64,000 nt of DNA from Heterodontus francisci. Taxonomy: Eukaryota. This document shows, in pieces, positions 15,501-60,300 of this stretch (position 1 is the first letter of the stretch; the number at the start of each line of letters is the position of its first letter). The position numbers and the translations under genes are program-made. The stretch is taken from contig NC_090382.1 in assembly GCF_036365525.1 (NCBI RefSeq), positions 34,145,298 through 34,209,297 of the forward strand, given 5' to 3'. The notes below the pieces were generated by a model, which was given only the letters and a program-made list of their open reading frames with translations, was not told the DNA's origin and searched no databases.

Positions 15501-18500
15501 TAAGAAGAAAAACAATAGCCAGGGTTCCCATTCCCAACTGCTGTTCAGTTAGTCCTGTGAAAGTGTATGTATATTGACGGAATTGGATACTGTTCTGAAT
15601 ACCCTTCCTGTCAATGGTCTGCCAGTGCCCAAGATCCAGGCTCACAAGTGGAAAGAGAGAGTTGATCAGCTACTGGAGGGCTGTCAGACCATGGAGAACC
15701 ATACATATGTGAAGAGTACATAGAAAAGTGAGCCTCCAGGACTGGAACATTTTCATGTTGCTTCAGTAACTGCCTCCTGCCAGCAGGTCACAGCAGAACC
15801 TGAGTACTGCAAAATATAGCAGTCCACTACTTACTCTGCATTCAACCAATTTAAATTTTTTGGAACTTTATACTGGCATATATTACAGGCAGATGAATGG
15901 AAAATTCCAAAAAGGACTAACAGAATCAGACTTTGCCTCAAAGTCAGAAGATTGTGGGTTCCTCACTCTAGTGAAATTGGGCCTCGTTGCACCTGTATTA
16001 TGGGCCTAATAGGGGTACAGGGGTCAGCAACATATCCATACACAGACACCAGTGGTCGTCGTAAAAGTTTTTGACAGCTGTGACTGGTAATTTCAGGGAT
16101 GAGAAATTTCCCATTGGCTTCTTCTTTCTGACCAGACTCGCTTTTTAAAAAAGAAAATCGCAAGTGTCAGTTTCACAGTTGAATTGGAATTTCTAAGCTC
16201 AGATCATTATCTAATGTTCATTAACACTACTTTCCATATTCACAGCTGACAGGTGCTAAAAGTGGGATCAGCAGTTTCTGGACTTTGGACAGATTCGAGG
16301 TTTCCTGGCGGGCTTTTAAAAAATTCGGAACCTGCTGGAAAACGCCAAATCTGTTTGAAGTTCAGAAACCGCTTTTTTCAATCTCAGCAATGATCAGAGA
16401 GAGTGAGAGAGGGACGGCAAGGGCAGAGAGAGAGGGGCAGAGGGAGAGAGGACAGAGAGAGAGAGGGCAGAGAGAGAGAAGCGAGAGCAGGAGGAGAGGT
16501 GGGGTGCAGAGAGAAAGAAATTATCTCACCGGTCCCCATGTAAGACAAAAATTGGAATGTGGCCCTCCAAGTGAAAAGGTTGGACACCCCTACTCCAAGC
16601 CTTTAATCTAAAGTTTTTAAATAACCTAGCAGCTAGGTAATTTTAAAACACAAGTCTAAAGGCTTGAGTTATGTAAACTCATTTTAAAATGGCAAAAGTC
16701 ACTTAGGGAATGTCTCTCTTGCTACACTCTGGCACGCATTACTTTCACTTGGGACACAAGTTCAGTGACATGTTTAAAGTTGCTGGACTTTTACTTCTAT
16801 ATAAATGTCCGCTGCATCCATTTGGAATCACATTGTCCCAGAACTTGTATTGAGGGGAAAACAGACAAGAAAATCCAAGGAAGCTCCAGAAGTCAGCACT
16901 ATATGTTCCTCATGAATGCAACAGTGAGGTGTAATGGGGCTGAGCAATATTGGCAAAAATAGGATGCTGCTGACCCCTATATAATAGGTAGTAAATACAA
17001 TGTAACAGATAGCTTTAATAAACCTTAACCTATGATGAACTGTCTACTATTCTGCAACAAAATCCATGCTGTATTTGCAGTTTTAAAAACTATCAGGAAA
17101 GACATAGCAGAAGTGTATTATGTTTCAGTGGACATGTTAGAAACAGTCATTGACTGATTTTGTTTTGCTGTGAATTGTATTAAAGGACAAGTGGGCGGCA
17201 CAGTGGCGCAGTGGTTAGCACCGTAGCCTCACAGCTCCAGTGACCCAGGTTCAATTCTAGGTACTGCCTGTGTGGAGTTTGCAAGTTCTCCCTGTGTCTG
17301 CGTGGGTTTCCTCCGGGTGCTCCGGTTTCCTCCCACATGCCAAAGACTTGCAGGTTGATAGGTTAATTTGCCATTATAAATTGCCCCTAGTATAGGTAGG
17401 TGGTAGGGAAATATAGGGACAGGTGGGGATGTGGTAGGAATATGGAATTAGTGTAGGATTAGTATAAATGGGTGGTTGATGGTCGGCACAGACTCGGTGG
17501 GCCGAAGGGCCTGTTTCAGTGCTGTATCTCTAAACTAAACTAAACATAATGTCAAAGAAGAGTAACTGCATGTGCATCATTTACTATCATGTGCATGTGC
17601 ATGTGCATCATTTACTATGTGGTTAGCACCGCAGCCTCACAGCTCCAGGGACCCGGGTTCGATTCCGGGTACTGCCTGTGTGGAGTTTGCAAGTTCTCCC
17701 TGTGTCTGCGTGGGTTTTCTCCGGGTGCTCCGGTTTCCTCCCACAAGCCAAAAAAAGACTTGCAGGTTGATAGGTAAATTGGCCATTATAAATTGTCACC
17801 AGTATAGGTAGGTGGTAGGGAAATATAGGGACAGGTGGGGATGTTTGTTGGGAATATGGGATTAGTGTAGGATTAGTATAAATGGGTGGTTGATGTTCGG
17901 CACAGACTCGGTGGGCCGAAGGGCCTGTTTCAGTGCTGTATCTCTAATCTAATCTAATCTATCCAGTTTGAGGGCAGATAACCTGAGTGACCAATGTCAT
18001 TTACAAGTTGTCTATATCGTATAATTACATTACATTAAAAGTGTACCTTTGCTAACAGGTAAGAGATTTGGCTTGGACATAAATTGGTTAATCTGGAGTG
18101 CAATCTTACAGGTAGTGACTAAAAATTCTGCAACTGAATAATACATGCAGTAACAACTGCTCAACCTTTTGCAGAAAAGCTTTTTGTTAATAATTACCTT
18201 GTCAGAGCTGAATCGGAACCAATACTGAAAGACTGAGATTATAGACATAAGTGAATTTAAGAAAATCGCTTTATTGGAGGAACTGAAGGGCGCTCTTTAT
18301 TTGTAATTGTGTGTATCTAATTTTTTCACTAGCTTTGGTGAATAAATGACATTTTGTCCATGAGAGATGCTGTTGTTTCTGTATTTTAGAATCCAGGACC
18401 TAGTTCAACAGAATGTCAAGATGAATAAACTAGTCTTGGCTATCTACCATTAATCTCTCTGTCCCTTCCTGTCCCACTATGTTTTTCTCTTTTATTTGAC

Positions 18501-28158: not shown

Positions 28159-28512
28159 GGGGCGGCACAGTGGCGCAGTGGTTAGCACCGCAGCCTCACA
28201 GCTCCAGCGACCCGGGTTCAATTCTGAGTACTGCCTGTGTGGAGTTTGCAAGTTCTCCCTGTGTCTGCGTGGGTTTCCTCTGGGTGCTTCGGTTTCCTCC
28301 CACATGCCAAAGACTTGCAGGTTGATAGGTAAATTGGCCATTAGCAATTGCCCCTAGTATAGGTAGGTGGTAGGGAAATATAGGGACAGGTGGGGATGTG
28401 GTAAGAATATGGAACTAGTGTAGGATTAGTATAATTGGGTGGTTGATGGTCGGCACAGACTCATTGGGCCGAAGGGCCTGTTTCAGTGCTGTATCTCTAA
28501 ACTAAACTAAAC
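28159..28512 (+). mobile_element. HE1-type V-SINE, full length
   Basis: Colinear with the 17193 copy. Confidence 0.92.
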
Positions 28513-29630
28513 CAATATAACACAACTTAGGCATATATCTGATATGATTAGAAACTGTGATATGCCAGCACCCAATATCATATTATCTTTTGGACAAGTA
28601 TACTTCTTACTATTCTACATCCTAAAATTGTTCTTTCTTTTGCTGTTTCAGTATAAGTAATTAAAATAGTTTAAAATCCAGCTATTATGTACAATCAATA
28701 ATAGACTTTTTGCCTTAAAGGGGACCTGAATTACATCTGTGTTTCTTGCTCTGAGTTTCCCCTACCCCTCCTGCCTCATAACTCATACTTGCTTTTGACT
28801 TCCTGTGTGCAATGACTTGTATTTGCTGTGTTTGTAAATGTTATTTTCTTCCTAAGCTTAAAAGAACATGGACATTTCTCATAGGCTGAGGCTCAATTAA
28901 AAATTGACCTTTCAACACTTCTGTTAATTCTTTGTAATATTTTTAAGCAGGAGAACACCTTTGGTCCATCTGTTTCACCTATCCACAGTATTTCTTTAAT
29001 GATCTTCATGTTGCTCTCGGTTATCACTAGCCCCCATGCCACCACACCGCTCTCCCCCTCCCCTAACCGTACAGGTTTTAAATGGTCAAACATTCATTGG
29101 TAAACCAAACATACAAAACTGCCAAACATGTGCACACTTTGGACAAACACTCTTTTCATTAATGTGGGGGATCTCCTTTAGTTTTAGCAGGACTCCTTGG
29201 TGTCATATTTGGTCGAATACTGTCTTGATGTTAAGGGCAGTTGCTCTCACCTCACTGCTGAAATTCAGCTCTTGTTTGCATTGGACCAAGACTGTAATGA
29301 AGTCTGGAGTTGAGTGATCCTGGTAGATCACAAACCTGCGTGATGTTATTGGTCAGTAAGTGCCACTTGATAAATTGTTGACTACTCCTTCCATCACTAT
29401 AGTGATAGTTGGGAATAGGCTGATAAGACAGCAATTGGCTGAGTTGGATTGTCCTGTAGACAGTGTTGTATGTTTGTTTGGTAGACTGCCGCCTTAATTA
29501 GTCTAGCTGATAGAGATACTTCAGTCTGGGGGAGTTAGAACGTTGGTATTTATTATATTAGAACTATATATAGTATGTGTGACTCCACCAAAGCCATGCT
29601 GCATCTAGCTTCAAGTCTCTCTCACATGTG

Positions 29631-30699: not shown

Positions 30700-32702
30700 C
30701 TCCTGCCATCTACTTTGTTGTATCCCGAAATTCAAGTGGACAATGGGATAACCAGGTTGGAAGATGAGGAAAAGGTGTGAATTTAATGGTTGGACTTTGC
30801 ACTATGTGGATGATTTGTGTTTGGGGGCGAGGAGGGGAAATGCCAGAGGGTTTATGATTGCTGAACCATGTGGCTTCACACACTCAGGTTATCTAAACTG
30901 TGCCTGTATGAGGCTGTTGCAGGCTTCTCTGACAGCCAAGTGAGTGGCTGCAGGCACACAGGCCACATCCTCATGCTCCTCCTCCTCTTCTTCCTCCTCC
31001 TTCTGCTCCTCCTCGGATGCCGAGTGACATGCACCTTTTCCTCCTGCCGCTCTAGTCTTCGCTACAGTACAATGTTGAGCAAGACACAGTAGACCACTAC
31101 CATTCTGGAGACCCATGCTGGTACATACTGAAGGGTTCCCTCAGATCTGCCCAAGCTTACTGGATGATTGTCGCTGTGGCTCTTGTTCTACTTTTCCTCG
31201 ACGTCATTGGCAGGGCTCCTCACAGGAATCATCAACCAGGTCCTTAGAGGGTAGCTGTAGTCTCCAAGGAGCCACCCATTTCTACTTGGAGATGCAAAAC
31301 CTATGGGAGATGTGACTGGCGCAGAATGAAAACATCATGGCAGCTTCCAGGATATGTTTCACAGCCAATGGGTGGCACAGTGGCGCAGTGGTTAGCACCG
31401 CAGCCTCACAGCTCCAGCGACCCGGGTTCAATTCTGGGTACTGCCTGTGTGGAGTTTGCAAGTTCTCCCTGTGTCTGCGTGGGTTTCCTCCGGATGCTCC
31501 GGTTTCCTCCCACATGCCAAAGACTTGCAGGTTGATAGGTAAATTGGCCATTATAAATTGCCACTAGTATAGGTAGGTGGTAGGGAAATATAGGGACAGG
31601 TGGGAATGTGGTAGGAATATGGAATTAGTGTAGGATTAGTATAAATGGGTGGTTGATGGTCGGCACAGACTCGGTGGGCCAAAGGGCCTGTTTCAGTGCT
31701 GTATCTCTAAACTAAACTAAACTAAACTAGCTGAACATTGATGGAAGAATCCATTCCAATTGATGAATATCATTGGTTGATCTGAGGGCGCCTTGATTGC
31801 CACATATGTGCAGTCTATGATTCACTGTCGCAAATCCGAAAGCCCTCTGTGTCTGATTGGCCTCATCAGTGTCAAAGTGGGAATAAGTGAAGGCCTTGGC
31901 AAATATGGCATTGGTCACCTGGGAGATGCATTTGTGAGGAGCAGATGTGAAATTCTGAAGATATCACCAGCAGACCCCTGGAAGGGGCCGGAGGTGAAGA
32001 AATTCAGGGCTGTAGTGACCTTAATGCCAATGACAATACGTATGCACCTGGTCCACTGGGAAGAAGGTCTTGTTACAGGAGGCTCAGATGTCAGAAATGA
32101 GTTGCCATGAAAGCCTGACCCTCCCGAGGTGCTGTTGCTCTGTTATGTCGAGGAAGCTGATCCTCTGCCTGTATACCCTGTGCTGAGGGCTATCGCCTCC
32201 TTTGAGCTGGAGCTCTATGGCCATCCCTTCTGTCTTGTAAGCAACATGTGGCTATAACTGCATAAACTGCTCCCATGCTGCAGTGAAGGCTGGCTACAGG
32301 GAAGTTCAGATCAAGGAGAGTAAAGTCCAAAGGAGGTGCAATGACTTCGAAAAGTTGGAAATCACCTGTGATGTAGTGAAGTCAGGCTCTCGAAACACAT
32401 CCTGTGAGCACAAGCCTTTCACATAGGCAGTGAATCAGCTGTGTGGTTTCAATCTTTAAAGGCTTTCCAATTTCATTGAACAATGGCTATCTGCTGTGTT
32501 CTCACCTGGTTCACCACGAAGAGTTCCACACAGTTCGGGAAACCTTTATGCTGGCTGTTAAAGGCAGAATCCTGGGTTGCAGCCGCAATTAATTACTTGT
32601 TTGAATATTTAAATCACTATCGGGATCGGTTTCCAACATGGCAGCATTTTTCGGCCCATGCCTGCAGCCGGACCTGCCCCCTATGCAGTTAAAATTCTGC
32701 CC
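30700..32702. mobile_element. Second degenerate Harbinger remnant
   Basis: - strand nuclease C-terminal-like acidic tract (CLAQHC...EEEEEEE) and a TIR-like end aaaattctgccc. Confidence 0.45.
31370..31729 (+). mobile_element. HE1-type V-SINE, full length
   Basis: Colinear with the 17193 copy; (TAAAC)n tail. Confidence 0.92.
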
Positions 32703-36731: not shown

Positions 36732-37079
36732 ACAGTGGCACAGTGGTTCGCACCGCAGCCTCACAGCTCCAGCGACCCGGGTTCAATTCTGGGTACTGCC
36801 TGTGTGGAGTTTGCAAGTTCTCCCTGTGTCTGCGTGGGTTTCCTCCGGGTGCTCCGGTTTCCTCCCACAGCCAAAAGACTTGCAGGTTGTTAGGTAAACT
36901 GGCCATTATAAATTGCCCCTAGTATAGGTCGGTGGTAGGGGAATATAGGGACAGGTGAGGATGTGGTAGGAATATGGGATTAGTGTAGGATTAGTATAAA
37001 TGGGTGGTTAATGGTCGTCACAGACTCAGTAGGCCGAAGGGCCTGTTTCAGTGCTGTATCTCTAAATCTAAATCTAAAA
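36732..37079 (+). mobile_element. HE1-type V-SINE
   Basis: Colinear with the 17193 copy; (TAAATC)n tail. Confidence 0.9.
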
Positions 37080-42502: not shown

Positions 42503-43140
42503 TCAAATGAATGGGTGTGAAAAGACTACACTTTATCAAAATGGAATGAAGATTGGTGGCACCCAGACCCCATTGTCTAACAATGGACCCACTATCAGAC
42601 ACCATTTATCAGGACAATGGTAAGGACACCAGGGGTCTGATAAGGAACTTAATATGCTGTGCAGACAAAGGCAGAGAGCCAAAGGGAGAGATTCCATCTG
42701 CTCCAGCAGAAGAAGAACAGGGAGAGCGAGGTGGCAGCTGGGTAAGTGAGTTTCAACTCATATAAACTTACCTTTTTGTTTCGGCAGTTTCTTTTTGCAG
42801 CAGCGATAGGGAGAGCGAGGTGGCAGCTGGGTAAGTGAATTTCAATTCATATAAACTTACCTTTTTGTTTCGGCAGTTTCTTTTTGCAGCGGCGACAGGG
42901 AGAGCGAGGTGGCAGCTGGGTAAGTAAGTCTTATATATTTGGGCAGCGGCTGAACCCAAGACACTACACCTGTAGTGTCTCCCACCCGCCCTCCTCCTCT
43001 AACCAAAAAAAAAGGACTCGGTGGTGTGTAGATAAGGTAAGGCTTTTTCTATTTCTTTTTTTTTTCCGTGTGATTGGTAAAAACTTTTCGTTCCTTTTTC
43101 ATTTATCTAAGTTAAGACTAAGTTAAGCTTAAGATTAAAA

Positions 43141-44076
43141 ATGGCAGGAGATCTCAGACCCGTGTTATGCTCCTCTTGCTCAATGTGGGAGCTCAGGGAC
43201 ACGGCTGATGTCCCTGACTCCTTCACGTGCTGGAAGTGTGTCCAGCTGCAGCTCTTGTTAGACCGCATGACGGCTCTGGAGCTGCGGATGGACTCACTTT
43301 GGAGCATCCGCGATGCTGAGGAGGTCGTGGATAGCACGTTTAGCGAATTGGTCTCACCGCAGATTAGGATTGCTGAGGGAGAAAGGAAATGGGTGACCAA
43401 AAGGCAGAGAAAGAGCAGGAAGGCAGTGCAGGTGTCTCCTGCCGTCATCTCCCTCCAAAACAGGTATACCGTTTTGGATACTGTTGGGGGAGATGGCTCA
43501 CCAGGGGAAGGCAGCAGTAGCCAGGTTCATGGTACCGTGGCTGGCTCTGCTGTTCGGAAGGGTGGGAAAAAGAGTGGAAGGGCTATAGTCATAGGGGATT
43601 CGATTGTAAGGGGAGTAGATAGGCGGTTCTTTGGTCGAAAACGAGACTCCCGAATGGTATGTTGCCTCCCAGGTGCACGGGTCAGGGATGTCTCAGATCG
43701 GCTGAAGGGGGAGGGTGAACAGCCAGTTGTCGTTGTGCACATAGGCACCAATGATATAGGTAAAAAACGGGATGAGGTCCTACAAGCAGAATTTAGGGAG
43801 TTAGGAGCCAAGTTAAAAAGTAGGACCTCAGAGGTAGTAATCTCAGGATTGCTACCAGTGCCACGTGATAGTCAGAGTAGAAATGAAAAAATAGTCAGGA
43901 TGAATGCATGGCTTGAGAGATGGTGCAGGAGGGAGGGGTTCAGATTTTTGGGACATTGGTACCGGTTCTGGGGGAGGTGGGACTATTACAAATTGGACAG
44001 TCTACACCTGGGCCAGACTGGAACCAATGTCCTTGGGGATGCTTTTGCTAACGCTGTTGGGGAGGGTTTAAACTAA
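43141..44076 (+). CDS. CR1 ORF1p: Cys-rich zinc finger, coiled coil and SGNH esterase (311 aa)
   Basis: CSSC...CWKC, heptad LLLDRMTALELRMDSL, IGDS, HIGTND, DSLHL. Confidence 0.9.
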   Translation: MAGDLRPVLCSSCSMWELRDTADVPDSFTCWKCVQLQLLLDRMTALELRMDSLWSIRDAEEVVDSTFSELVSPQIRIAEGERKWVTKRQRKSRKAVQVSPAVISLQNRYTVLDTVGGDGSPGEGSSSQVHGTVAGSAVRKGGKKSGRAIVIGDSIVRGVDRRFFGRKRDSRMVCCLPGARVRDVSDRLKGEGEQPVVVVHIGTNDIGKKRDEVLQAEFRELGAKLKSRTSEVVISGLLPVPRDSQSRNEKIVRMNAWLERWCRREGFRFLGHWYRFWGRWDYYKLDSLHLGQTGTNVLGDAFANAVGEGLN

Positions 44077-46848
44077 TGTGGCAGGGGGATGGGAACCAAA
44101 TGAGGAGGTCAGTGGACAGTAAGGAGGTAGTAACTAAAGCCTGTAATGAACTAGATAATGAAGTCAGCGTGACTAAGGGGAAGAGTAGGCAGGGAGCAGA
44201 TGATGAACGCAAAGGGACTGGTGGTCTGAGGTGCATTTGTTTTAATGCAAGAAGTGTAGTAGGTAAGCAGATGAACTTAGGGCTTGGATTAGTACTCGAG
44301 CTGTGAGGCAATATGGGCAGAACTCAGAAATAGGAAGGGTGCGGTAACAATGTTGGGGCTGTATTACAGGCCTCCCAACAGCGAGCGTGAGATAGAGGTA
44401 CAAATATGTAAACAGATTATGGAAAGATGTAGGAGCAACAGGGTGGTGGTGATAGGAGATTTTAATTTTCCCAACATTGACTGCGTTTCACTTAGTGTTA
44501 GAGGTCTAGATGGAGCAGAATTTGTAAGGAGCATCCAGGAGGGTTTTCTAGAGCAGTATGTAAATAGTCCAACTCGGGAAGGGGCCATACTGGACCTGGT
44601 GTTGGGGAATGAGCCCGGCCAGGTGGTTGAAGTTTCAGTAGGGGACTACTTTGGGAATAGTGATCACAATTCCGTAAGTTTTAGAATACTCATGGACAAA
44701 GACGAGAGTGGCCCTAAAGGAAGAGTGCTAAATTGGGGGAAGGCCAACTATACCAAAATTCGGCAGGAGCTGGGGAATGTAGATTGGGAGCAGCTGTTTG
44801 AAGATAAATCCACATTTGATATGTGGGAGGCTTTTAAAGAGAGGTTGATTAGCGTGCAGGAGAGACATGTTCCTGTGAAAATGAGGGATAGAAATAGCAA
44901 GATTAGGGAACCATGGATGACAGGTGAAATTGTGAAACTAGCTAAGAGGAAAAAGGAAGCATACATAAGGTCTATGCGGCTGAAGAAAGACGAAACTTTG
45001 GAAGAATATCGGGAATGTAGGACCAATCTGAAACGAGGAATTAAGTGGGCTAAAAGGGTTCATGAAATATCTTTAGCAAACAGGGTTAAGGAAAATCCCA
45101 AAGCCTTTTATTCAAATATAAGGAGCAAGAGGGTAACTAGAGAAAGGATTGGCCCACTCAAGGACAAAGGGGGAAAATTATGCGTGGAGTCAGAGAAAAT
45201 GGGTGAGATTCTAAACGAGTTCTTTGCATCGGTATTCACCGAGGAGAGGGACATGACGGATGTTGAGGTTAGGGATAGATGTTTTATTACTCTATGTCAA
45301 GTCGGCATAAGGAGGGAGGAAGTGTTGGGTATTCTAAAAGGCATTAAGGTGGACAAGTCCCCAGGTCCGGATGGGATCTATCCCAGGTTACTGAGGGAAG
45401 CGAGAGAGGAAATAGCTGGGGCCTTAACAGATATCTTTGCAGCATCCTTAAACACAGGTGAGGTCCCGGAGGACTGGAGAATTGCTAATGTTGTCCCCTT
45501 GTTTAAGAAGGGTAGCAGGGATAATCCAGGTAATTATAGACCGGTGAGCCTGACGTCAGTGGTAGGGAAGCTGCAGTAGAAGATACTGAGGGATAGGATC
45601 TATTCCCATTTGGAAGAAAATGGACTTATCAGTGATAGGCAACATGGTTTTGTGCAGGGAAGGTCATGTCTTACCAACTTAATAGAATTCTTTGAGGAAG
45701 TGACAAAGTTGATTGATGAGGGAAGGGCTGTAGATGTCGTATACATGGACTTCAGTAAGGCGTTTGATAAGGTTCCCCATGGTAGCTTGATGGAGAAAGT
45801 GAAAGCGCATGGGGTCCAGGGTGTACTAGCTAGATGGATAAAGAACTGGCTGGGCAACAGGAGACAGAGAGTAGCAGTGGAAGGGAGTTTCTCAAAATGG
45901 AGACGTGTGACCAGTGGTGTTCCACAGGGATCCGTGCTGGGACCACTGTTGTTTGTGATATACATAAATGATTTGGAGGAAAGTATAGGTGGTCTGATTA
46001 GCAAGTTTGCAGACGACACTAAGATTGGTGGAGTAGCAGATAGTGAAGGGGACTGTCAGAGAATACAGCAGAATATAGATAGATTGGAGAGTTGGGCAGA
46101 GAAATGGCAGATGGAGTTCAATCAGGGCAAATGCGAGGTGATGCATTTTGGAAGATCCAATTCAAGAGTGAACTATACAATAAATGGAAAAGTCCTGGGG
46201 AAAATTGATGTACAGAGAGATTTGGGTGTTCAGGTCCATTGTTCCCTGAAGGTGGCAACGCAGGTCAATAGAGTGGTCAAGAAGGCATACGGCATGCTTT
46301 CCTTCATCGGACGGGGTATTGAGTACAAGAGCTGGCAGGTCATGTTACAGTTGTATAAGACTTTGGTTCGGCCACATTTGGAATACTGCGTGCAGTTCTG
46401 GTCGCCACATTACCAAAAGGATGTGGATGCTTTGGAGAGGGTGCAGAGGAGGTTCACCAGGATGTTGCCTGGTATGGAGGGCACTAGCTATGAAGAGAGG
46501 TTGAGTAGATTAGGGTTATTTTCATTAGAAAGACGAAGGTTGAGGGGGGACCTGATTGAGGTGTACAAAATCATGAGAGGTATAGACAGGGTGGATAGCA
46601 AGAAGCTTTTTCCCAGAGTGGGGGATTCAATTACTAGGGGTCACGAGTTCAAAGTGAGAGGGGAAAAGTTTAGGGGGGATATGTGTGGAAAGTTCTTTAC
46701 GCAGAGGGTGGTGGGTGCCTGGAATGCGTTGCCAGCGGAGGTGGTAGACGCGGGCACGATAGCGTCTTTTAAGATGTATCTGGACAGATACATGAATGGG
46801 CAGGAAGCAAAGAGATACAGACCCTTAGAAAATAGGCGACAGGTTTAG
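44076..46848 (+). pseudogene. CR1 ORF2 (APE endonuclease-reverse transcriptase), disrupted
   Basis: Frameshift near 44265, internal deletion near 44300 relative to family B, in-frame TAG at 45577-45579; motifs YRPP, GDFN, SDH, FADD. Confidence 0.9.
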
Positions 46849-51100: not shown

Positions 51101-53176
51101 GATATGCTCAGGCTTGGACATTTAAACCAGAAAATCAGGTCCTGGTGCTGTTTCCATTGCACAGCGAACCCCTGGAGGCGAGATTTAGTGGCCCGTACTG
51201 TGTGGGGAAAATGATCTGTGAGGTAAATTACTTGATTAACTCCCCAGACTGGAGAAAGAAACAATGACTGTGCCACATAAATATGTTAAAGAGATATCAT
51301 AATCGGGAACAGGACAAAGCAGTGAATGCATGCCAGGTAGTGAGAACAGAGGAGGATGGAGACAATAGTGAAGAGGAACTAGGGGGAGAAGGGAACCCAG
51401 AAAATTGTCAGATTCAACCCCTACTGTGAAATTAGCCAACACAGAAATCTTAGGGACACTAGAGACAGTACTTAATTATTTAAGTGACGAGCAGAGGAAA
51501 AGATTAGTAACATTATTAAGAGAGTTAGGGGGAGTGTGTAGGGACAAACCAGGTCATACCTCTTTGACCATTCATGATGTGGATGTAGGGGAGACCCCAC
51601 CTATTAAACAAAATCCATACCCAGCAACCTTTCCAAGGTTGTTGAATCAGGTGGTGACTGGTTAAACAATTGTGCCGTCTACCTTGATGACCTGCTGGTC
51701 TCGAGCAACATCTGGGAAATCGCTTAAGAGCATTATTCAAGGATCTCAAAAATGCTAACCTAGTGGCCAACTTAGCTGAAAGCAAGTTTCCTAAAGCCAA
51801 AGTGACCTATTTGGGACGTGTTGTTGGTAAAGGTCGAGTGTTGCCAAGGGCAGCAAATGTACAAGCCCTCCTGGGAATGTGTGGTTTTTATAGAAAATTT
51901 GTCCCCAATTTCAGAAGCCTTGCTGCCCCATTGACCAACCTACTTCAGAAAAACATCAAGATAGTATGGTCAGAACCGTGTCAGATGGCTTTCGAGAAAT
52001 TGAAGGCTATCCTAACAAATGAACCCATATTAGCAGCACCAAATTTTAACAGGTCCTTTAAGTTGGCTGTTGATGTGAGCGATGTAGGAGCAAGAGCTGT
52101 CTTACTGCAGGAAGATGACTCCGGTATTGCGAGACCAATTGGCTATTTTTCAAAAAAAATTAAATAAACATCAGTGTAAATATTCCGCAATAGAAAAAGG
52201 AGGCATTGGGACTTCTGCTAGCCCTTCAGCATTTTGAGATCTATGTTAATAACAGAAACAGGAAAATTTTAATATACACTGACCACAACCTAATAACCTT
52301 CTTAGAGAAATTCAAAGTTAACATTACTGGGCTGTTCAGATGGGGTTTACTCCTCCAGTCTTTTAATTTAAATAACATGCACATTGCTGGAAAAAATAAT
52401 GTCATTGCAGACGCACTGTCCAGAGTTTGAATAGACAATACCACCAGCAGCTGTGGAAAGTCTAGTGACAGAGACTGAGGAATGTATGTGAATGAATGCT
52501 TGTGAATGTCTACTATTGTGGGTTTACTTTTCTTGCTGTCTGAAAAACAAAAAAGAATGAAATACCAAGGGATTCAATTTTTTTCCCTTTTTGAAGGGAG
52601 GTGTCAAGCTCATGCACAGAGAAGTTATGAATTATATAATGAACTTATAAAACGAACCCCAAATGGACACTTTTCCTGAAAAACAAGATGGAGTTGAGAG
52701 GTCAGGTGACCTTATCCTATATTGCCAATACACATGGAAACGACAAGAACCCTGAGTCAACCTTCATGTCTGAACCAGCCTTGGTGAAGGCATTAAAATG
52801 TCAATGGCTCATTCTGTGCTGTTTGTTCTGTTTGTGCTGGTTTCTCTGCCTTATAATTGGAAAGCGGTGAACAAGGATTCACCAAGGGGGACCTAAAAAC
52901 ACGGTGTGTTTAAAATTAAACCCTGTGATGGTAAGACCAGGTGAAGGCTGAGTGGGAACTCTTGACACCTATCTCACCTGATCACAACAGAAATTTGGGG
53001 GCTCATCCAGGATTTTACCCACAAACGAGAGAAATTGGAAGTGGGAAGCCAAATTGTTCCCAATCAAAGAAGAGCAAGATTCCAATACAGGTTTTAGAAC
53101 ATAGAACATAGAACATTACAGCGCAGTACAGGCCCTTCAGCCCTCGATGTTGCGCCGACCTGTGAAACCATCTGAC

Positions 53177-56100
53177 CTACACTATTCCATTTTCATCCAT
53201 ATGTCTATCCAATGACCACTTAAATGCCCTTAAAGTTGGCGAGTCTACTACTGTTGCAGGCAGGGCGTTCCACGCCCCTACTACTCTCTGTGTAAAGAAA
53301 CTACCTCTGACATCTGTCCTATATCTATCACCCCTCAACTTAAAGCTATGTCCCCTCGTGTTTGCCATCACCATCCGAGGAAAAAGGCTCTCACTATCCA
53401 CCCTGTCCAGCCCTCTGATTATCTTATATGTCTCTATTAAGTCACCTCTCCTCCTCCTTCTCTCCAACGAAAACAACCTCAAGTCCCTCAGCCTTTCCTC
53501 GTAAGACCTTCCCTCCATACCAGGCAACATCCTAGTAAATCTCCTCTGCACCTTTTCCAAAGCTTCCACATCCTTCCTATAATGCGTGACCAGAACTGCA
53601 CGCAATACTCCAGGTGCGGCCGCACCAGAGTTCTGTACAGCTGCAGCATGACCTCGTGGCTCCTAAACTCGATCCCCCTACTAATAAAAGCTAACACACC
53701 ATATGCCTTCTTAACAGCTCTATTAACCTGGGTGGCAACTTTCAGGGATTTATGTACCTGGACACCAAGATCTCTCCGCTCATCTACACTACCAAGAATT
53801 TTCCCATTAGCCCAGTATTCTGCAATCCTGTTACTCCTTCCGAAGTGAATCACCTCACACTTTTCCGCATTAAACTCCATTTGCCATCTCTCAGCCCAGC
53901 TCTGCAGCCTATCTATGTCCCTCTGTAACCTACAACATCCTTCGGCACTATCCACAACTCCACCGACCTTCGTGTCATCCGCAAATTTACTAACCCACCC
54001 TTCTACACCCTCATCCAGGTCATTTATAAAAATGACAAACAGCAGTGGCCCCAAAACAGATCCTTGCGGCACGGTGGCACAGTGGTTAGCACTGCAGCCT
54101 CACAGCTCCAGGGACCCGGGTTCGATTCTAGGTACTGCCTGTGCGGAGTTTGCAAGTTCTCCCTGTGTCTACGTGGGTTTCGTCCGGGTGCTCCGGTTTC
54201 CTCCCACATGCCAAAGACTTGCAGGTTGATAGGTTAATTGGCCATTATAAATTGCCCCTAGTATAGGTAGGTGGTAGGGAAATATATAGGGACCGGTGGG
54301 GATGTTATTGGAATATGGGATTCGTGTAGGATTAGTATAAATGGGTGGTTGATGGTCGGCACAGACTCGGTGGGCCAAAGGGCCTGTTTCAGTGCTGTAT
54401 CTCTAAACTAAATCTAAACCACTAGAAACTATACTCCAGGATGAACATTTACCATCAACCACCACCCTCTGTCTTCTTTCAGCTAGCCAATTTCTGATCC
54501 AAAGCACTAATTCACCTTCAACCCCATACTTCTGTATTTTCTGCAATAGCCTACCGTGGGGAACTTTATCAAACGCCTTACTGAAATCCATATAGACCAC
54601 ATCCACGGCTTTACCCTCATCCACCTGTTTGGTCACCTTGTCAAAAAACTCAATCAGGTTTGTGAGGCACGACCTACCCTTCACAAAACCGTGCTGACTA
54701 TCGCAAATGAACTTATTCTTTTCAAGATGATTATAAATCCTATCTCTTATAACCTTTTCCAACATTTTACCCACAACCGAAGTAAGGCTCACAGGTCTAT
54801 AATTACCAGGGCTGTCTCTACTCCCCTTCTTGAACAAGGGGACAACATTTGCTATCCTCCAGTCTTCCGGCACTATTCCTGTCGACAATGACGACATAAA
54901 AATCAAGGACAAAGGCTCTGCAATCTCCTCCCTGGCTTCCCAGAGAATCCTAGGATAAATCCCATCTGGCCCAGGGGACTTATCTATTTTCACACTTTCC
55001 AAAATTGCTAACACCTCCTCCTTGTGAACCTCAATCCCATCTAGCCTAGTAGTCTGTATCTCAGTATTCTCCTCGACAACATTTTCTTTCTCCACTGTAA
55101 ATACTGACGAAAAATATTTATTTAACACTTCCCCTATCTCCTCCGATTCCACACACAACTTCCCACTACTATCCTTGATTGGCCCTAACCTATCTCTAGT
55201 CATTCTTTTATTCCTGATATACCTATAGAAAGCCTTAGGGTTTTCTTTGATCCTATCCGCCAATGACTTCTCGTGTCCTCTCCTTGCTCTTCTTATCTCT
55301 CCCTTTAGATCCTTCCTGGCTAGCTTGTAACTCTCAAGTGCCCTAACTGAGCCTTCACGTCTCATCCTAACATAAGCCTTCTTCTTCCTCTTGACAAGCT
55401 CTTCAACTTCTTTAGTAAACCACGGCTCCCTCGCTCGACAACTTCCTCCCTGCCTGACAGGTACATACTTATCAAGGACACGCAGTAGCTGCTCCTTGAA
55501 TAAGCTCCACATTTCGATTGTGCCCATCCCCTGCAGTTTCCTTCCCCATCCTACGCATCCTAAATCTTGCCTAATCGCATCATAATTTCCTTTCCCCCAG
55601 CTATAATTCTTGCCCTGCTGTATATGCCTGTCCCTGCCCATCGCTAAGGTAAACCTAACCGAATTGTGATCACTATCACCAAAGTGCTCACCAACTTCTA
55701 AATCTAACACCTGGCCGGGTTCATTACCCAGTACCAAATCCAATGTGGCATCGCCCCTGGTTGGCCTGTCTACATACTGTGTCAGAAAACCCTCCTGCAC
55801 ACACTGGACAAAAACAGACCCATCTAAAGTACTCGAACTATAGTATTTCCAGTCAATATTTGGAAAGTTAAAGTCCCCCATAACCACTACCCTGTTACTC
55901 TCGCTCCTGTCAAGAATCATCTTTGCTATCCTTTCCTCTACATCTCTGGAACTATTCGGAGGTCTATAGAAAACTCCCAACAGGGTGACCTCTCCTCTCC
56001 TGTTCCTAACCTCGGCCCAGACTACCTCAGTAGACGAGTCCTCAAACGTCCTTTCTGCCGCTGTAATACTTTCCTTGATTAACAATGCCACACCCCCCCC

Positions 56101-56412
56101 TCTTTTACCCTCTTCTCTGTTCTTAGTGAAACATCTAAATCCCGGAACCCGCAACATCCATTCCTGTCCCTGCTCTACCCATGTCTCTGAAATGGCCACA
56201 ACATCGAGGTCCCAGGTACCAACCCATGCTGCAAGCTCACCCACCTTATTCCGGATGCTCCTGGCGTTGAAGTAGACACATTTTAAACCAAGCTCTTGCT
56301 TGCCAGTGCCCTCTTGTGTCCTTATAACCTTATCCCTGACCTCACTACTCTCAACATCCTGCACACTGGAACTACAATTTAGGTTCCCATCCCCCTGCTG
56401 AATTAGTTTAAA
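53177..56412 (-). pseudogene. CR1 ORF2, interrupted by an HE1 SINE and one frameshift
   Basis: Open from the ORF1 junction to SSG/, resumes /VPQG after the SINE; 1-nt deletion near 53585 (FWSPHY motif broken). Confidence 0.9.
54066..54417 (+). mobile_element. HE1-type V-SINE inserted in the CR1 RT domain
   Basis: Colinear with the 17193 copy; removing it restores SSGVPQG. Confidence 0.93.
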
Positions 56413-57344
56413 CCCCCCCGAAGAGCACTAGCAAATCTCCCCCCCAGGATATTGGTACCCCTCTGGTTCAGGTGAAGACCATCCTGTTTGTAGAGGTCCC
56501 ACCTACCCCAGAAAGAGCCCCAATTATCCAGGAAACCAAAACCCTCCCTCCTACACCATCCCTGCAGCCACGTGTTCAACTCCTCTCTCTCCCTATTCCT
56601 CACTTCGCTAGCACATGGCACGGGCAACAACCCAGAGATAACAACTCTGTTTGTTCTCGCTCTAAGCTTCCACCCTAGCTCCCTGAATTTCTGCCTTAAA
56701 TCCCCATCTGTCTTCCTACCTATGTCATTGGTGCCTATGTGTACCACGACTTGGGGCTGCTCCCCCTCCCCCTTGAGGATCCCAAAAATACGATCCGAGA
56801 CATCACGTACCCTGGCACCTGGGAGGCAACACACCAACCGTGAGTCTCTCTCGTTCCCACAAAACCTCCTATCTGTTCCCCTAACTATGGAGTCCCCAAT
56901 GACTAATGCTCTGCTCCTCTTACCCCTTCCCTTCTGAGCAACAGGGACAGACTCTGCGCCAGAGACCTGTATCCCATTGCCTACCCCTGGTAAGTCGTCT
57001 CCCCCAACAGTATCCAAAACGGTATACCTGTTGTTGAGGGAAACGGCCACAGGGGATCCCTGCACTGCCTGCTGGTTCCCTCTCCTTCCCCTGACGGTAA
57101 CCCATCTACCTTCTTCTTTTACCTGAGGTGTGACTGCCTTCCGATGACTCCTCTCAATAATCCCCTCTGCCTCCCGAATGATCCGAAGTTCCTCCAGCTC
57201 CAGCTCCAGTTCCCTAACGCGGTCCTCGAGGAGCTGGAGCTGGGTGCACTTCCCGCAGATGCAGTCAGCAGGGACACCCTTGGCGACCCTTACCTCCCAC
57301 ATTCTGCAGGAGGAACATTCAACTGCCTTAACCTCCATTCCCAC
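56403..57344 (-). CDS. CR1 ORF1p: zinc finger, coiled coil and SGNH esterase (about 311 aa from ATG 57338)
   Basis: CSSC...CGKC, LLEDRVRELELELEEL, IGDS, HIGTND, DGLHL; uninterrupted. Confidence 0.9.
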   Translation of the reverse strand: MGMEVKAVECSSCRMWEVRVAKGVPADCICGKCTQLQLLEDRVRELELELEELRIIREAEGIIERSHRKAVTPQVKEEGRWVTVRGRRGNQQAVQGSPVAVSLNNRYTVLDTVGGDDLPGVGNGIQVSGAESVPVAQKGRGKRSRALVIGDSIVRGTDRRFCGNERDSRLVCCLPGARVRDVSDRIFGILKGEGEQPQVVVHIGTNDIGRKTDGDLRQKFRELGWKLRARTNRVVISGLLPVPCASEVRNREREELNTWLQGWCRREGFGFLDNWGSFWGRWDLYKQDGLHLNQRGTNILGGRFASALRGGLN

Positions 57345-60300
57345 TATTCTAAATTCCCAAGTTTTTAACCAATCACACGATAAAACAAGAAGAGAAATAG
57401 AAAAAGCCTTACCTTACCTACACACAACCGAGTCCTTTTTTTGGTAAGAGGAGGAGGGCGGGTGGGAGACACCACAAGAGTAGTGTCTCGGGTTCAGAAA
57501 CAGCCCAAATAGAGAGGTTTCTACTTACCCAGCAGTCCCTGCTCCACCGAAACTCCCGATGAAATTGACTTCCCAGCTGTTCACTCCTCGCTCGCAATGC
57601 CTGTGCTCCTGGAAAAGCTGCACAACGAAAAGCTTTTCTTGTGGTTGTATGTGCTTGAGTACTAACATGTCTGCAACTGAAGCTAGTAACTTGGGATAAG
57701 TTAAAAGCACTGTCTATGGAGAAGTTGAGGAAAATGACTGAGCAGTGTAGGATCACTCTATGTGGAAAAGCTAAGAAGTCTGAACTCCTAAGGCTAGTGG
57801 CCAAATATTTTTCCCTTGAATCTGAAGAAGCAGAAATAGACTCAGACAGGGTATTGCTAACAAAAATACAATTGAAACAGAGGAAACATGAATTTGAGGA
57901 AAGAGAGAGACAGAAAGAAAGAACCTTCCAGAAAGAAAGTGAAGAGAGAGAGCTGAAGCGGCTTGAGTTAACTAGCGGGCGACAGAGTAACCCTAGTGAA
58001 AGCATGGCCAATATGGAGGAGCATAATTCAGGGCTGGGTACAGAATTGTTAAAACTAACTCAACTATTTCCAAAATTCATTGAGGAGGATGTAGAAATTT
58101 TTTTTGTGTCCTTTGAGAAACTGGCAAGGCAGCTAAAATGGCCTCTTTTATTACAAAGCAAGCTAAGCAGAAAAGCCCATGAGGTTTATTCCCTGTTGTC
58201 AGATGAGAGTTCATCAAATTATGAATTGACAAAAAACGCTATCCTCAGGGTAGATGAATTAGTACCTGAAGCCTATCACCAACAGTTTAGAAGCAAGCTA
58301 ATCAAACTTATCTGGAGTTTTAAAAAAGTAAGCAGCTGGCTTTTGACCAGTAGCTGAGGGCTCTTAAAGTACAGCTCAGCTATGAGAATCTCAGAGAAGT
58401 AATTCTGTTAGAGGAATTTCAATACTCTCTCCAACATTCCATAAAGACCCATGTAGAAGAGCAGTGGGTTCAGAGACCCCGTTCTGGCCAATGTGTTTGC
58501 TGTCATTTATAAGTCAGTCTCCCAGGGGAGAAACTTTCCTAGTCACCCCCACAAATCTGAAAAGGACAAAAGGTGGGAAGGTGATAGTGCCCAAGCAGTC
58601 CTGAGAAAGGAAAGCAGGAGACACGGGGGGCCCTCCTCCAGCCAAAAAGGAAGGTGCTAGAAGCAGGAATGAGACCCAGAGAGTTGTGTGCTTCCATTGT
58701 AATACAGCAGGGCATTTAATAGCTGACTGCTGGAAGCTAAAGTGAAAACCGGTAGGGATAATCAGGGCACACCAGCTCAGTGAAGAAGCAAACCTGATGG
58801 AAAGAACAGCAGAACAAGCTGTGGCTTTAACTTCAGTAAGAGTGCAACCCAGCAAGCTTACTACTGCAAGTGCAGCAAAAATTAATAGGATTCCTGAAAG
58901 TTATCAGGGTTTTGTGTTTGAAGGGAAAGTAACCCCATACCCCTCAAGTGGGGCAAGCAAGCCCATAGTAATCCTCAGGAAATAGGGGTCACTAGATCCC
59001 TTTTACTGGGAAAAGACCTGACATTTCCCCCAGAGAGTGTAGTGAACATCAGAATGGTGGTGAATGGTATTGGAGGGCAGTGTATGCATGTACTTTCCCT
59101 GAATATGTAGCGGATCAGGCCATGATCAAACCAGCTCCCCCAGAGGAGACTGAATTAGCACTGCAGGCAAATGACCAGGTCTGTCTGTCCAAGACTTTTG
59201 TTGGGAAATTAGAAGACCCAGGGAGTGAATTAAATAAATTTTCCCTAGCTGAGGCTCAGCGAGCCGACCCAGTATTGCAAGAGTTAGCACAGGTTATCCA
59301 GTCTGATAGTGAAGCAGAGGGAGTTCCTGATTGCTACTATTTAAAGAATGAGGTACTGATGAGGAAATGGAGTTCTCCTCGCAGATCTGAGAGCAAGGAG
59401 TGGACAGTAGTTCACCAGTTAGTGGTGCAGCAGAGGTACTGGAGAGAAATATTAAGAAGGGCCCATCAGACTACAGTGGCTGTACATGCCAGTATACAAA
59501 AGACCAAAGCCCGCATAAGACAGTGTTTTGACTGGGCAAAACTCCACAAAGATATGGTGGAGGACTGCAGGAGTTGCCACATGTGCCAGGTTGAGGGGAA
59601 ACACCAACTTACAGTGAAACCTGCACCCCTAAGTCCTGTACCGGTGTTAGGAGGACCCTCCAGCAGAGGGCTGGTGAACTGTAAGGAACTCCTGCCGAGA
59701 ACAAAAGGGGACAGGCAGGCACAAGGCTGGCAAAAGGTCAGAAAGGGAATGGGAAAAAGTGACCAAGAGGGCAGGTTAAAGGAAGTCCGGGAGGAATTCT
59801 GAATGAAAACCCTTGCTGTCCAGACAGCCAAACCAGAAAAATTTGAAAAGGTAGATCCCACACCTCCTATGTAAATGCAGATACTAGAAGCAACCCACCA
59901 GACTTGCTAACAGCATTTACAGGAACCTGCAGAGACAAAGAAAGACCTCTAAGTGGCACAGAAACCATGAGGTTGATGCCTCACCTTGTCAAGGTGCCAC
60001 AGGGGAGTGCAGTAGAGTCTGCACAAATACCTGTGGGCAGGAATGTCCCAGAGGACAAAGGGGATATTGGCAAGAAATCCTCCCCCACAGTCAGAAGGAA
60101 AGAGAGCCATGCATCCCCTGAGGTCAAAGGCCTTTGCATGACTCAGCAAGGCACTGAAAGAGAGTTCAGGATAGACCCGCCCACTACTGACTCTCCTGAA
60201 AAAAAAATTCCAACTCAGGGCTAATTAAACCAAACCATGTCAGAGACCCTAGGCAGCCATGGAAATGGGAAAACTGAAGAAAAACTTCCCCAAAGAACCA

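Follow-up and report, generated by a model that had tools for sequence, protein, structure and literature searches.

The question raised by this locus is how the second open reading frame (ORF2) of a LINE is reached when its first in-frame AUG lies downstream of catalytic motifs. The element concerned, here called element B, occupies the minus strand of a 64,000-nucleotide stretch of the Heterodontus francisci genome (contig NC_090382.1), the whole of which is referred to as the window; unless a strand is given, coordinates of element B are on the minus strand. Element B belongs to the vertebrate CR1 LINEs and has an esterase-type ORF1. This ORF1 (56403-57338, 311 aa from the first Met) encodes a Cys-rich N-terminus, a long helix, a disordered linker and an SGNH/GDSL esterase domain (PF13472, E 3.7e-14) and ends in Gly-Leu-Asn-stop; its profile matches the zebrafish LINE esterase 4c1b (E 4e-42), and its nearest named homologues come from sharks and rays. 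In ORF2, an APE endonuclease (PF03372) is followed by a reverse transcriptase (RT, PF00078). The 3' tail is a short tandem repeat with no poly(A), a feature of CR1 elements. The same combination of an esterase ORF1, an APE and RT ORF2 and a short-repeat 3' tail is described for canonical vertebrate CR1 LINEs in the consulted parts of PMC13343379 and PMC3905857, and the junction of element B resembles, by eye, the consensuses labelled CR1 in the PMC13343379 supplement (first 400 nt of each).

Upstream of ORF1, a part of the 5' UTR (57414-57533) contains exact blocks of 26 and 24 nt, one of them C-rich, in common with a second family of the window, family A. ORFs of 213 aa (minus strand) and 232 aa (plus strand) at 57418-58357 adjoin the element upstream and apparently belong to another repeat. 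The 5' part of ORF2 (54420-56427), in the -1 frame, covers the endonuclease and the start of the RT. It is split from the 3' part by a SINE-like insert of 354 bp (54066-54419), to which other copies in the window are 89-94% identical; the region 53093-54065 then holds the rest of the RT with a later frame break, the 3' UTR and the short tandem-repeat tail. Because of the insert and the frame break, this copy is dead. The family is abundant, with a depth of about 3,000-fold in sequencing run X23. The SINE-like insert and the CR1 3' tail have 44 bp in common. Repeats of about 350 bp of the same kind also occur at 17195-17545, 17619-17957, 28162-28520, 31374-31722 and 36732-37078, and together with the CR1 tail carrying the shared 44 bp they resemble the elasmobranch HE1/HER1 pair.

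At the junction, the last two ORF1 codons form part of a slippery heptamer U_UUA_AAC in the ORF1 frame (T TTA AAC, 56406-56412), and the stop codon TAA (56405-56403) stands directly behind it, overlapping an ATT (56403-56401; the two together span 56401-56405). A second in-frame heptamer of the X_XXY_YYZ type, G_GGU_UUA (56409-56415), overlaps the first; it is present in families A and B and missing from amniote-type loci. A sequence-only reading of this DNA had pointed to an open -1 frame running from GGT TTA AAC TAA, and this frame is indeed open from 56427 to 54403, with ORF2 open for 674 codons. Element B thus combines an open -1 frame with an in-frame heptamer of the X_XXY_YYZ type, as a -1 frameshift site would. 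The same reading had noted ATT where family A has ATG, which the sequence at 56403-56401 bears out; the UAAUG stop-start overlap of A is therefore absent in B, which has UAAUU. The family-specific linker in the ORF2 frame (56281-56381) holds no in-frame AUG. The first in-frame ATG, codon 91 (56157), lies 69 codons after a GTG at 56364 (codon 22) and past the endonuclease motifs YFNARS (codon 52) and AISETW (codon 78), exactly as had been claimed.

Reads from 4 of the 24 listed runs, aligned to 56150-56750, bear on whether the lack of an AUG is a trait of the family. Among the 40 best-supported of 222 variant rows (each at about 52% or more in some run), positions 56399 and 56400 show family-A-type letters, and 56401 does not appear. 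In run X1, which may be the source sample, about 65% of the depth at the junction is B-like, so that a majority of ATG within family B should have appeared among the variants. In a related protein, P0131, the linker is as long as that of B, the residue corresponding to ATT is Thr and no Met precedes the endonuclease. The reads of other copies, which are indirect evidence, do not favour ATG, and ATT is in agreement with being the family-B state; the consensus ATG that could have undone the sequence-only argument does not appear to exist in this family. The GTG at 56364 is copy-specific, with GTA in 2,446 of 2,813 reads of X23 (approximately 87%), and was rejected as a start of ORF2, which also removes one candidate site for reinitiation. 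In ORF2 codons 22-87, ahead of the first AUG, the majority of reads departs from this copy at eight places; seven of these changes leave the amino acid of the -1 frame unaltered, indicating that this region is coding in that frame.

The same data weigh on the proposal that family B begins ORF2 at Met91 or leaves it untranslated, the family being non-autonomous and the junction an inherited relic. The death of the copy through the SINE insert and the later frame break would suit such a relic. Met91, however, lies past two endonuclease motifs, the differences upstream of it are mostly synonymous, and the family is abundant with an ORF2 open over its 674 codons. This proposal is largely refuted and we regard it as extremely improbable.

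The junction of family A (44061-44097, plus strand), in a copy whose ORF2 is broken, contains the heptamer (44067-44073), the UAAUG overlap and a G-rich 17-mer (44081-44097). The two elements align with 65.5% identity and ten exact runs of at least 17 nt, the longest of 35 nt. Judged from this alignment, A and B appear as distinct homologous lineages with one ancestral junction, and the description of B as an independent family was too strong. The 35-nt match (57032-56998, minus strand) falls in the disordered linker of ORF1 (N-R-Y-T-V-L-D-T-V-G-G) and could possibly reflect a cis element or recombination. In the 5' UTR, blocks of 26, 16 and 24 nt are identical between A (about 42975-43056, plus strand) and B (57472-57393, minus strand) and comprise a C-rich tract, an A-run and a splice-donor-like motif. 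The 5' UTR of A also contains a 118-bp unit that is repeated with 96.6% identity (42719-42925, plus strand).

Comparison with further elements was based on at least 80 metagenome loci taken by ORF1 protein motifs, six of which are vertebrate-type with a junction; no shark copy is among the loci listed. T TTA AAC followed by a stop was found in seven of the eight vertebrate-type DNA junctions (A, B, L001-L004 and L010, with L006 degenerate), a set that is small and related and in which two metagenome junctions, from frame-broken copies, were placed by eye. As a control, none of 17 internal Leu-Asn pairs is encoded by T TTA AAC, codon usage predicting about 2-4%. Across five elements, the codon is invariant in 3 of 27 amino-acid-invariant esterase columns and in both junction codons (Fisher p 0.025), and the third base is invariant in 8 of 140 esterase columns and in 3 of 3 at the heptamer (Fisher p 0.0003). 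Relative to the esterase columns, the codons and third bases of the heptamer are thus fixed, and the heptamer is conserved beyond the need of the protein.

Published consensuses extend this result. In the PMC13343379 supplement, covered for the first 400 nt of each consensus and with matches read by eye, 17 of the 20 matches to the heptamer plus stop are ORF1/ORF2 junctions, with labels read as shark, ray, chimaera, bowfin, coelacanth, frog and crocodilian; the shark and ray CR1 consensuses have the same junction as B. Most of these junctions were located through the heptamer pattern itself and form a biased set. When the G-rich motif alone was the query, nine CR1 junctions were obtained from these same first 400 nt, eight with the full heptamer and one beginning inside it, and three patterns with synonymous variants of the heptamer matched no CR1 junction there. 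Synonymous variation of the heptamer between families, named beforehand as a possible refutation, was consequently not encountered in any DNA locus or published consensus examined. The 10-nt arrangement of heptamer and stop is conserved at the nucleotide level across jawed vertebrates. The viral contigs searched yielded nothing and the prokaryote genomes no relative, two further pattern matches being from outside CR1, and supplement file 2 of PMC4316615, as far as it was covered, gave matches to 3' ends only. In two SquAca CR1 consensuses of PMC13343379 (first 400 nt), an extra heptamer plus stop followed by a G-rich stretch occurs in the 5' UTR, upstream of ORF1.

At the protein level, 86 of the 89 ORF1 homologues that extend to the last helix end in Leu-Asn, and these span sharks, rays, coelacanth, frogs, turtles and squamates. 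The residue preceding Leu-Asn can be any of nine amino acids, yet an NNT codon could encode it in 85 of 87 proteins; one position further upstream, 40 of 87 have a residue that NNT cannot encode. In a model of ORF1, position 332 closes the last helix and the pLDDT is below 50 at residues 334-336, and the solved chain of the zebrafish esterase stops about two profile positions before the Leu-Asn end. On the ORF2 side, 11 of 159 other proteins extend back to F-K-L; only one of the 11 continues with Met, and three of them have no Met before the endonuclease. Longer, fused forms of ORF1 (four proteins, one esterase-endonuclease gene model) are weak evidence. In two stingray gene models, P0040 and P0127, the latter named as a hydroxyacid oxidase isoform, esterase and endonuclease are linked by G-F-K-L-x-x-Q-G, which is what the junction encodes in its -1 frame. 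P0010, deposited under a bacterium and 74% identical to P0001, and P0087, deposited under a frog parasite, are vertebrate-type CR1 ORF1 proteins, and their depositions are probably contamination.

A constraint that is not translational (internal promoter, splice acceptor, DNA target or recombination site, with ORF2 made from a processed or shorter RNA) could also preserve nucleotides. An AG stands before the G-run in the shark and several amniote-type junctions, two published consensuses start at the heptamer (PMC13343379, first 400 nt), and A and B have other long blocks in common at the nucleotide level. A splice acceptor is nevertheless weak, the AG being missing from two alligator consensuses in the same material and no pyrimidine tract being present, and in B even a shorter RNA would offer no AUG ahead of the endonuclease. 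Such a constraint also leaves aside that the heptamer is always in the slippage phase with the stop right behind it, and we consider it very improbable.

Taken together, the data suggest that ORF2 of element B is probably reached by programmed -1 ribosomal frameshifting, which would yield an esterase-endonuclease-RT fusion. The part of PMC5009743 consulted counts U_UUA_AAC with the most shift-prone -1 sites in mammals. Most ribosomes would stop and release the 311-aa esterase ORF1p, and a minority would slip back by one base, the Leu and Asn tRNAs re-pairing on UUU AAA; alternatively, the Asn tRNA could shift during slow decoding of the stop. The product would be an ORF1p-linker-endonuclease-RT fusion of approximately 1,300 aa, with ...GGLN/LIQQGDGN... 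at the junction. As no hairpin was found, the pause may, more speculatively, be ascribed to the adjacent stop together with an unstructured G-rich element 7-10 nt downstream, which could act in the mRNA entry channel or bind a protein.

The main competitor of frameshifting is termination-reinitiation, that is, a restart at the codon overlapping UAA (AUG in A, the near-cognate AUU in B) or nearby, giving a free ORF2p. UAAUG is found in A and in 3 of 19 published junctions (first 400 nt of the PMC13343379 consensuses), and both B and one ray consensus have AUU in that place. The other 16 of the 19 have no UAAUG. Over the 19 junctions the stop may be UAA, UAG or UGA, and the codon overlapping the stop in other families reads Gly, Asp, Asn, Ser, Val or Thr. 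In-frame AUGs occur in the linkers of A, L001, L002 and L004; with UAAUG in A and in three consensuses, they make reinitiation possible in many families, and where an AUG stands at or after the junction both routes may coexist. In B itself a frame-0 AUG at 56390, 13 nt after the stop, opens a 3-codon ORF inside the 17-mer and would divert scanning subunits. Above all, reinitiation leaves the fixation of U_UUA_AAC at synonymous sites unexplained: the invariant feature is the heptamer plus stop in the slippage phase, whereas the AUG wanders or is absent. Besides SART1, L1 probably reinitiates as well, and translation of L1 ORF2 is AUG-independent. The consulted part of PMC2951350 speaks of an "unconventional mechanism" for it, that of PMC3708506 offers SART1 as a precedent for reinitiation, and the latter describes how LINEs translate ORF2 as unclear. 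We regard reinitiation as unlikely in B, without dismissing it. The preference for frameshifting over reinitiation at an AUG, put forward in the sequence-only reading, survived both of the tests that could have refuted it; it does not reach as far as a non-AUG restart at AUU, with which the data are still compatible.

The UAAUG overlap of SART1, as described in the part of PMC3708506 consulted, is present in family A, but B has UAAUU, and a downstream RNA structure of the SART1 type was not found in B. Several features of B are those of -1 frameshifting at U_UUA_AAC in coronaviruses such as IBV and in the gag-pol of retroviruses and LTR retrotransposons, as treated in the part of PMC5009743 covered: the heptamer, the downstream ORF in the -1 frame and, as in gag-pol-type systems, the fusion of a structural-type protein to a polymerase. 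Unlike these sites, B belongs to a non-LTR element, has a stop in the 0 frame immediately after the heptamer and shows no hairpin in pseudoknot-free folding. Reinitiation of the calicivirus type (TURBS) relies on a UGGGA motif shortly upstream of the stop. In B, UGGGA lies 96 nt upstream of the stop, and similarly in A, on Trp-Asp codons that differ in amniote-type loci.

What could stimulate frameshifting was sought in the G-rich 17-mer (56382-56398), which encodes Q-G-D-G-N in the -1 frame. As claimed from the sequence, it is identical in A and B and begins 7 nt after the heptamer, and the linker beyond it has diverged. This identity was rejected as evidence in itself, nine other exact runs between A and B being as long or longer. 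The 17-mer occurs twice in the window (0.01 expected by chance). The depth of raw reads is about 7,000 over 56381-56422 and 2,960 in the linker, a doubling which indicates that this stretch, and not the linker, is common to other families; at 56382, 3,255 reads part from the sequence, and their consensus is mixed. The 17-mer is a real island of conservation. It is not invariant, with G>A at 56391 in 2,048 of 7,139 reads of X23 (29%) and in 52% of the depth of X1; amniote-type loci retain only a G-run pattern, and one esterase consensus of PMC13343379 (first 400 nt) has the heptamer without the G-rich element.

The sequence-only reading had taken the spacing of the 17-mer as typical of a frameshift stimulator; that it acts as a structured one is unsupported, and a G-quadruplex is doubtful. 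In pseudoknot-free folding, the downstream regions of A (z +1.34) and B (z +1.18) are less stable than shuffled sequences and L004 is neutral (z 0.03), so that a local hairpin was rejected as stimulator; a 3' stem-loop 5-9 nt downstream, usual but not universal for -1 frameshifting, was not found in B. L001 (z -2.09) and L002 (z -1.64) fold better than shuffles, with hairpins that are further downstream and not common to the others. G4Hunter gives 1.08-2.4, at least the top 5% of scores of the respective element, but there are just two GG tracts in B. In a search for long-range pairing no best partner was common to the elements, the C-rich 5' UTR block ranking weakly (fourth in B, second in A), and Rfam returned two sub-threshold chance matches and no frameshift element. 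By analogy, the 17-mer could possibly contain a linear stimulator. Linear 3' stimulators are described in PRRSV and Semliki Forest virus in the consulted part of PMC5009743, and the likeness of B to them is a resemblance only: the motif of PRRSV nsp2TF is C-rich and bound by nsp1beta and PCBP, whereas that of B is G-rich, 7-10 nt away and has no known binder.

In the open-access literature searched, no paper was found that proposes frameshifting for vertebrate CR1. None of the main texts of PMC13343379, PMC3708506, PMC3905857, PMC4120745 and PMC13708176 contains the word "frameshift", and in that of PMC13343379 "overlap", "start codon" and "translation" do not occur either. The first 300,000 of the 449,034 characters of PMC5009743 do not name CR1, their sole non-LTR passage concerning HeT-A and TART. 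Papers of the 1990s on chicken, turtle and mosquito T1 elements, as well as Repbase notes, reportedly describe overlapping ORFs in the CR1 clade, and an earlier suggestion of frameshifting is thus possible. According to the part of PMC13343379 consulted, CR1-group elements account for 22-34% of the genomes of sharks and rays and dominate among the retrotransposons of most vertebrates. If frameshifting operates, the enzyme would be attached to ORF1p, the lipid-binding esterase, this attachment would fix the ORF1p:ORF2p stoichiometry, and the design of CR1 constructs for assays would change. It would also account for the wandering annotations of ORF2 starts and for the fused gene models; the catalogue of recoding would gain a -1 frameshift signal that is possibly structure-free. 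The fixed heptamer permits a direct and cheap test.

Other esterase LINEs may have taken a second route to the fusion. Stop-codon readthrough is favoured when UGA is followed by C. Among 27 non-vertebrate-type loci hand-picked from the metagenome loci (L012, L013, L016-L018, L022, L025 and L028 included), ORF1 ends with UGA then C in 24, which looks like candidate stop-codon readthrough joining ORF1 to ORF2. A broader view, to which we would give slightly less than an even chance, is that all canonical esterase vertebrate CR1s have for more than 400 million years made a Gag-Pol-like fusion through a structure-free -1 frameshift on a coronavirus-type heptamer, with the adjacent stop and a G-rich element bound by a protein as stimulators, and a second esterase-LINE lineage does so through UGA-C readthrough, recoding fusion being the general route of esterase LINEs, unlike that of L1 and SART1. 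In 18 of the 27 loci the endonuclease follows in the same frame with no further stop, and L022 contains no Met in 200 codons.
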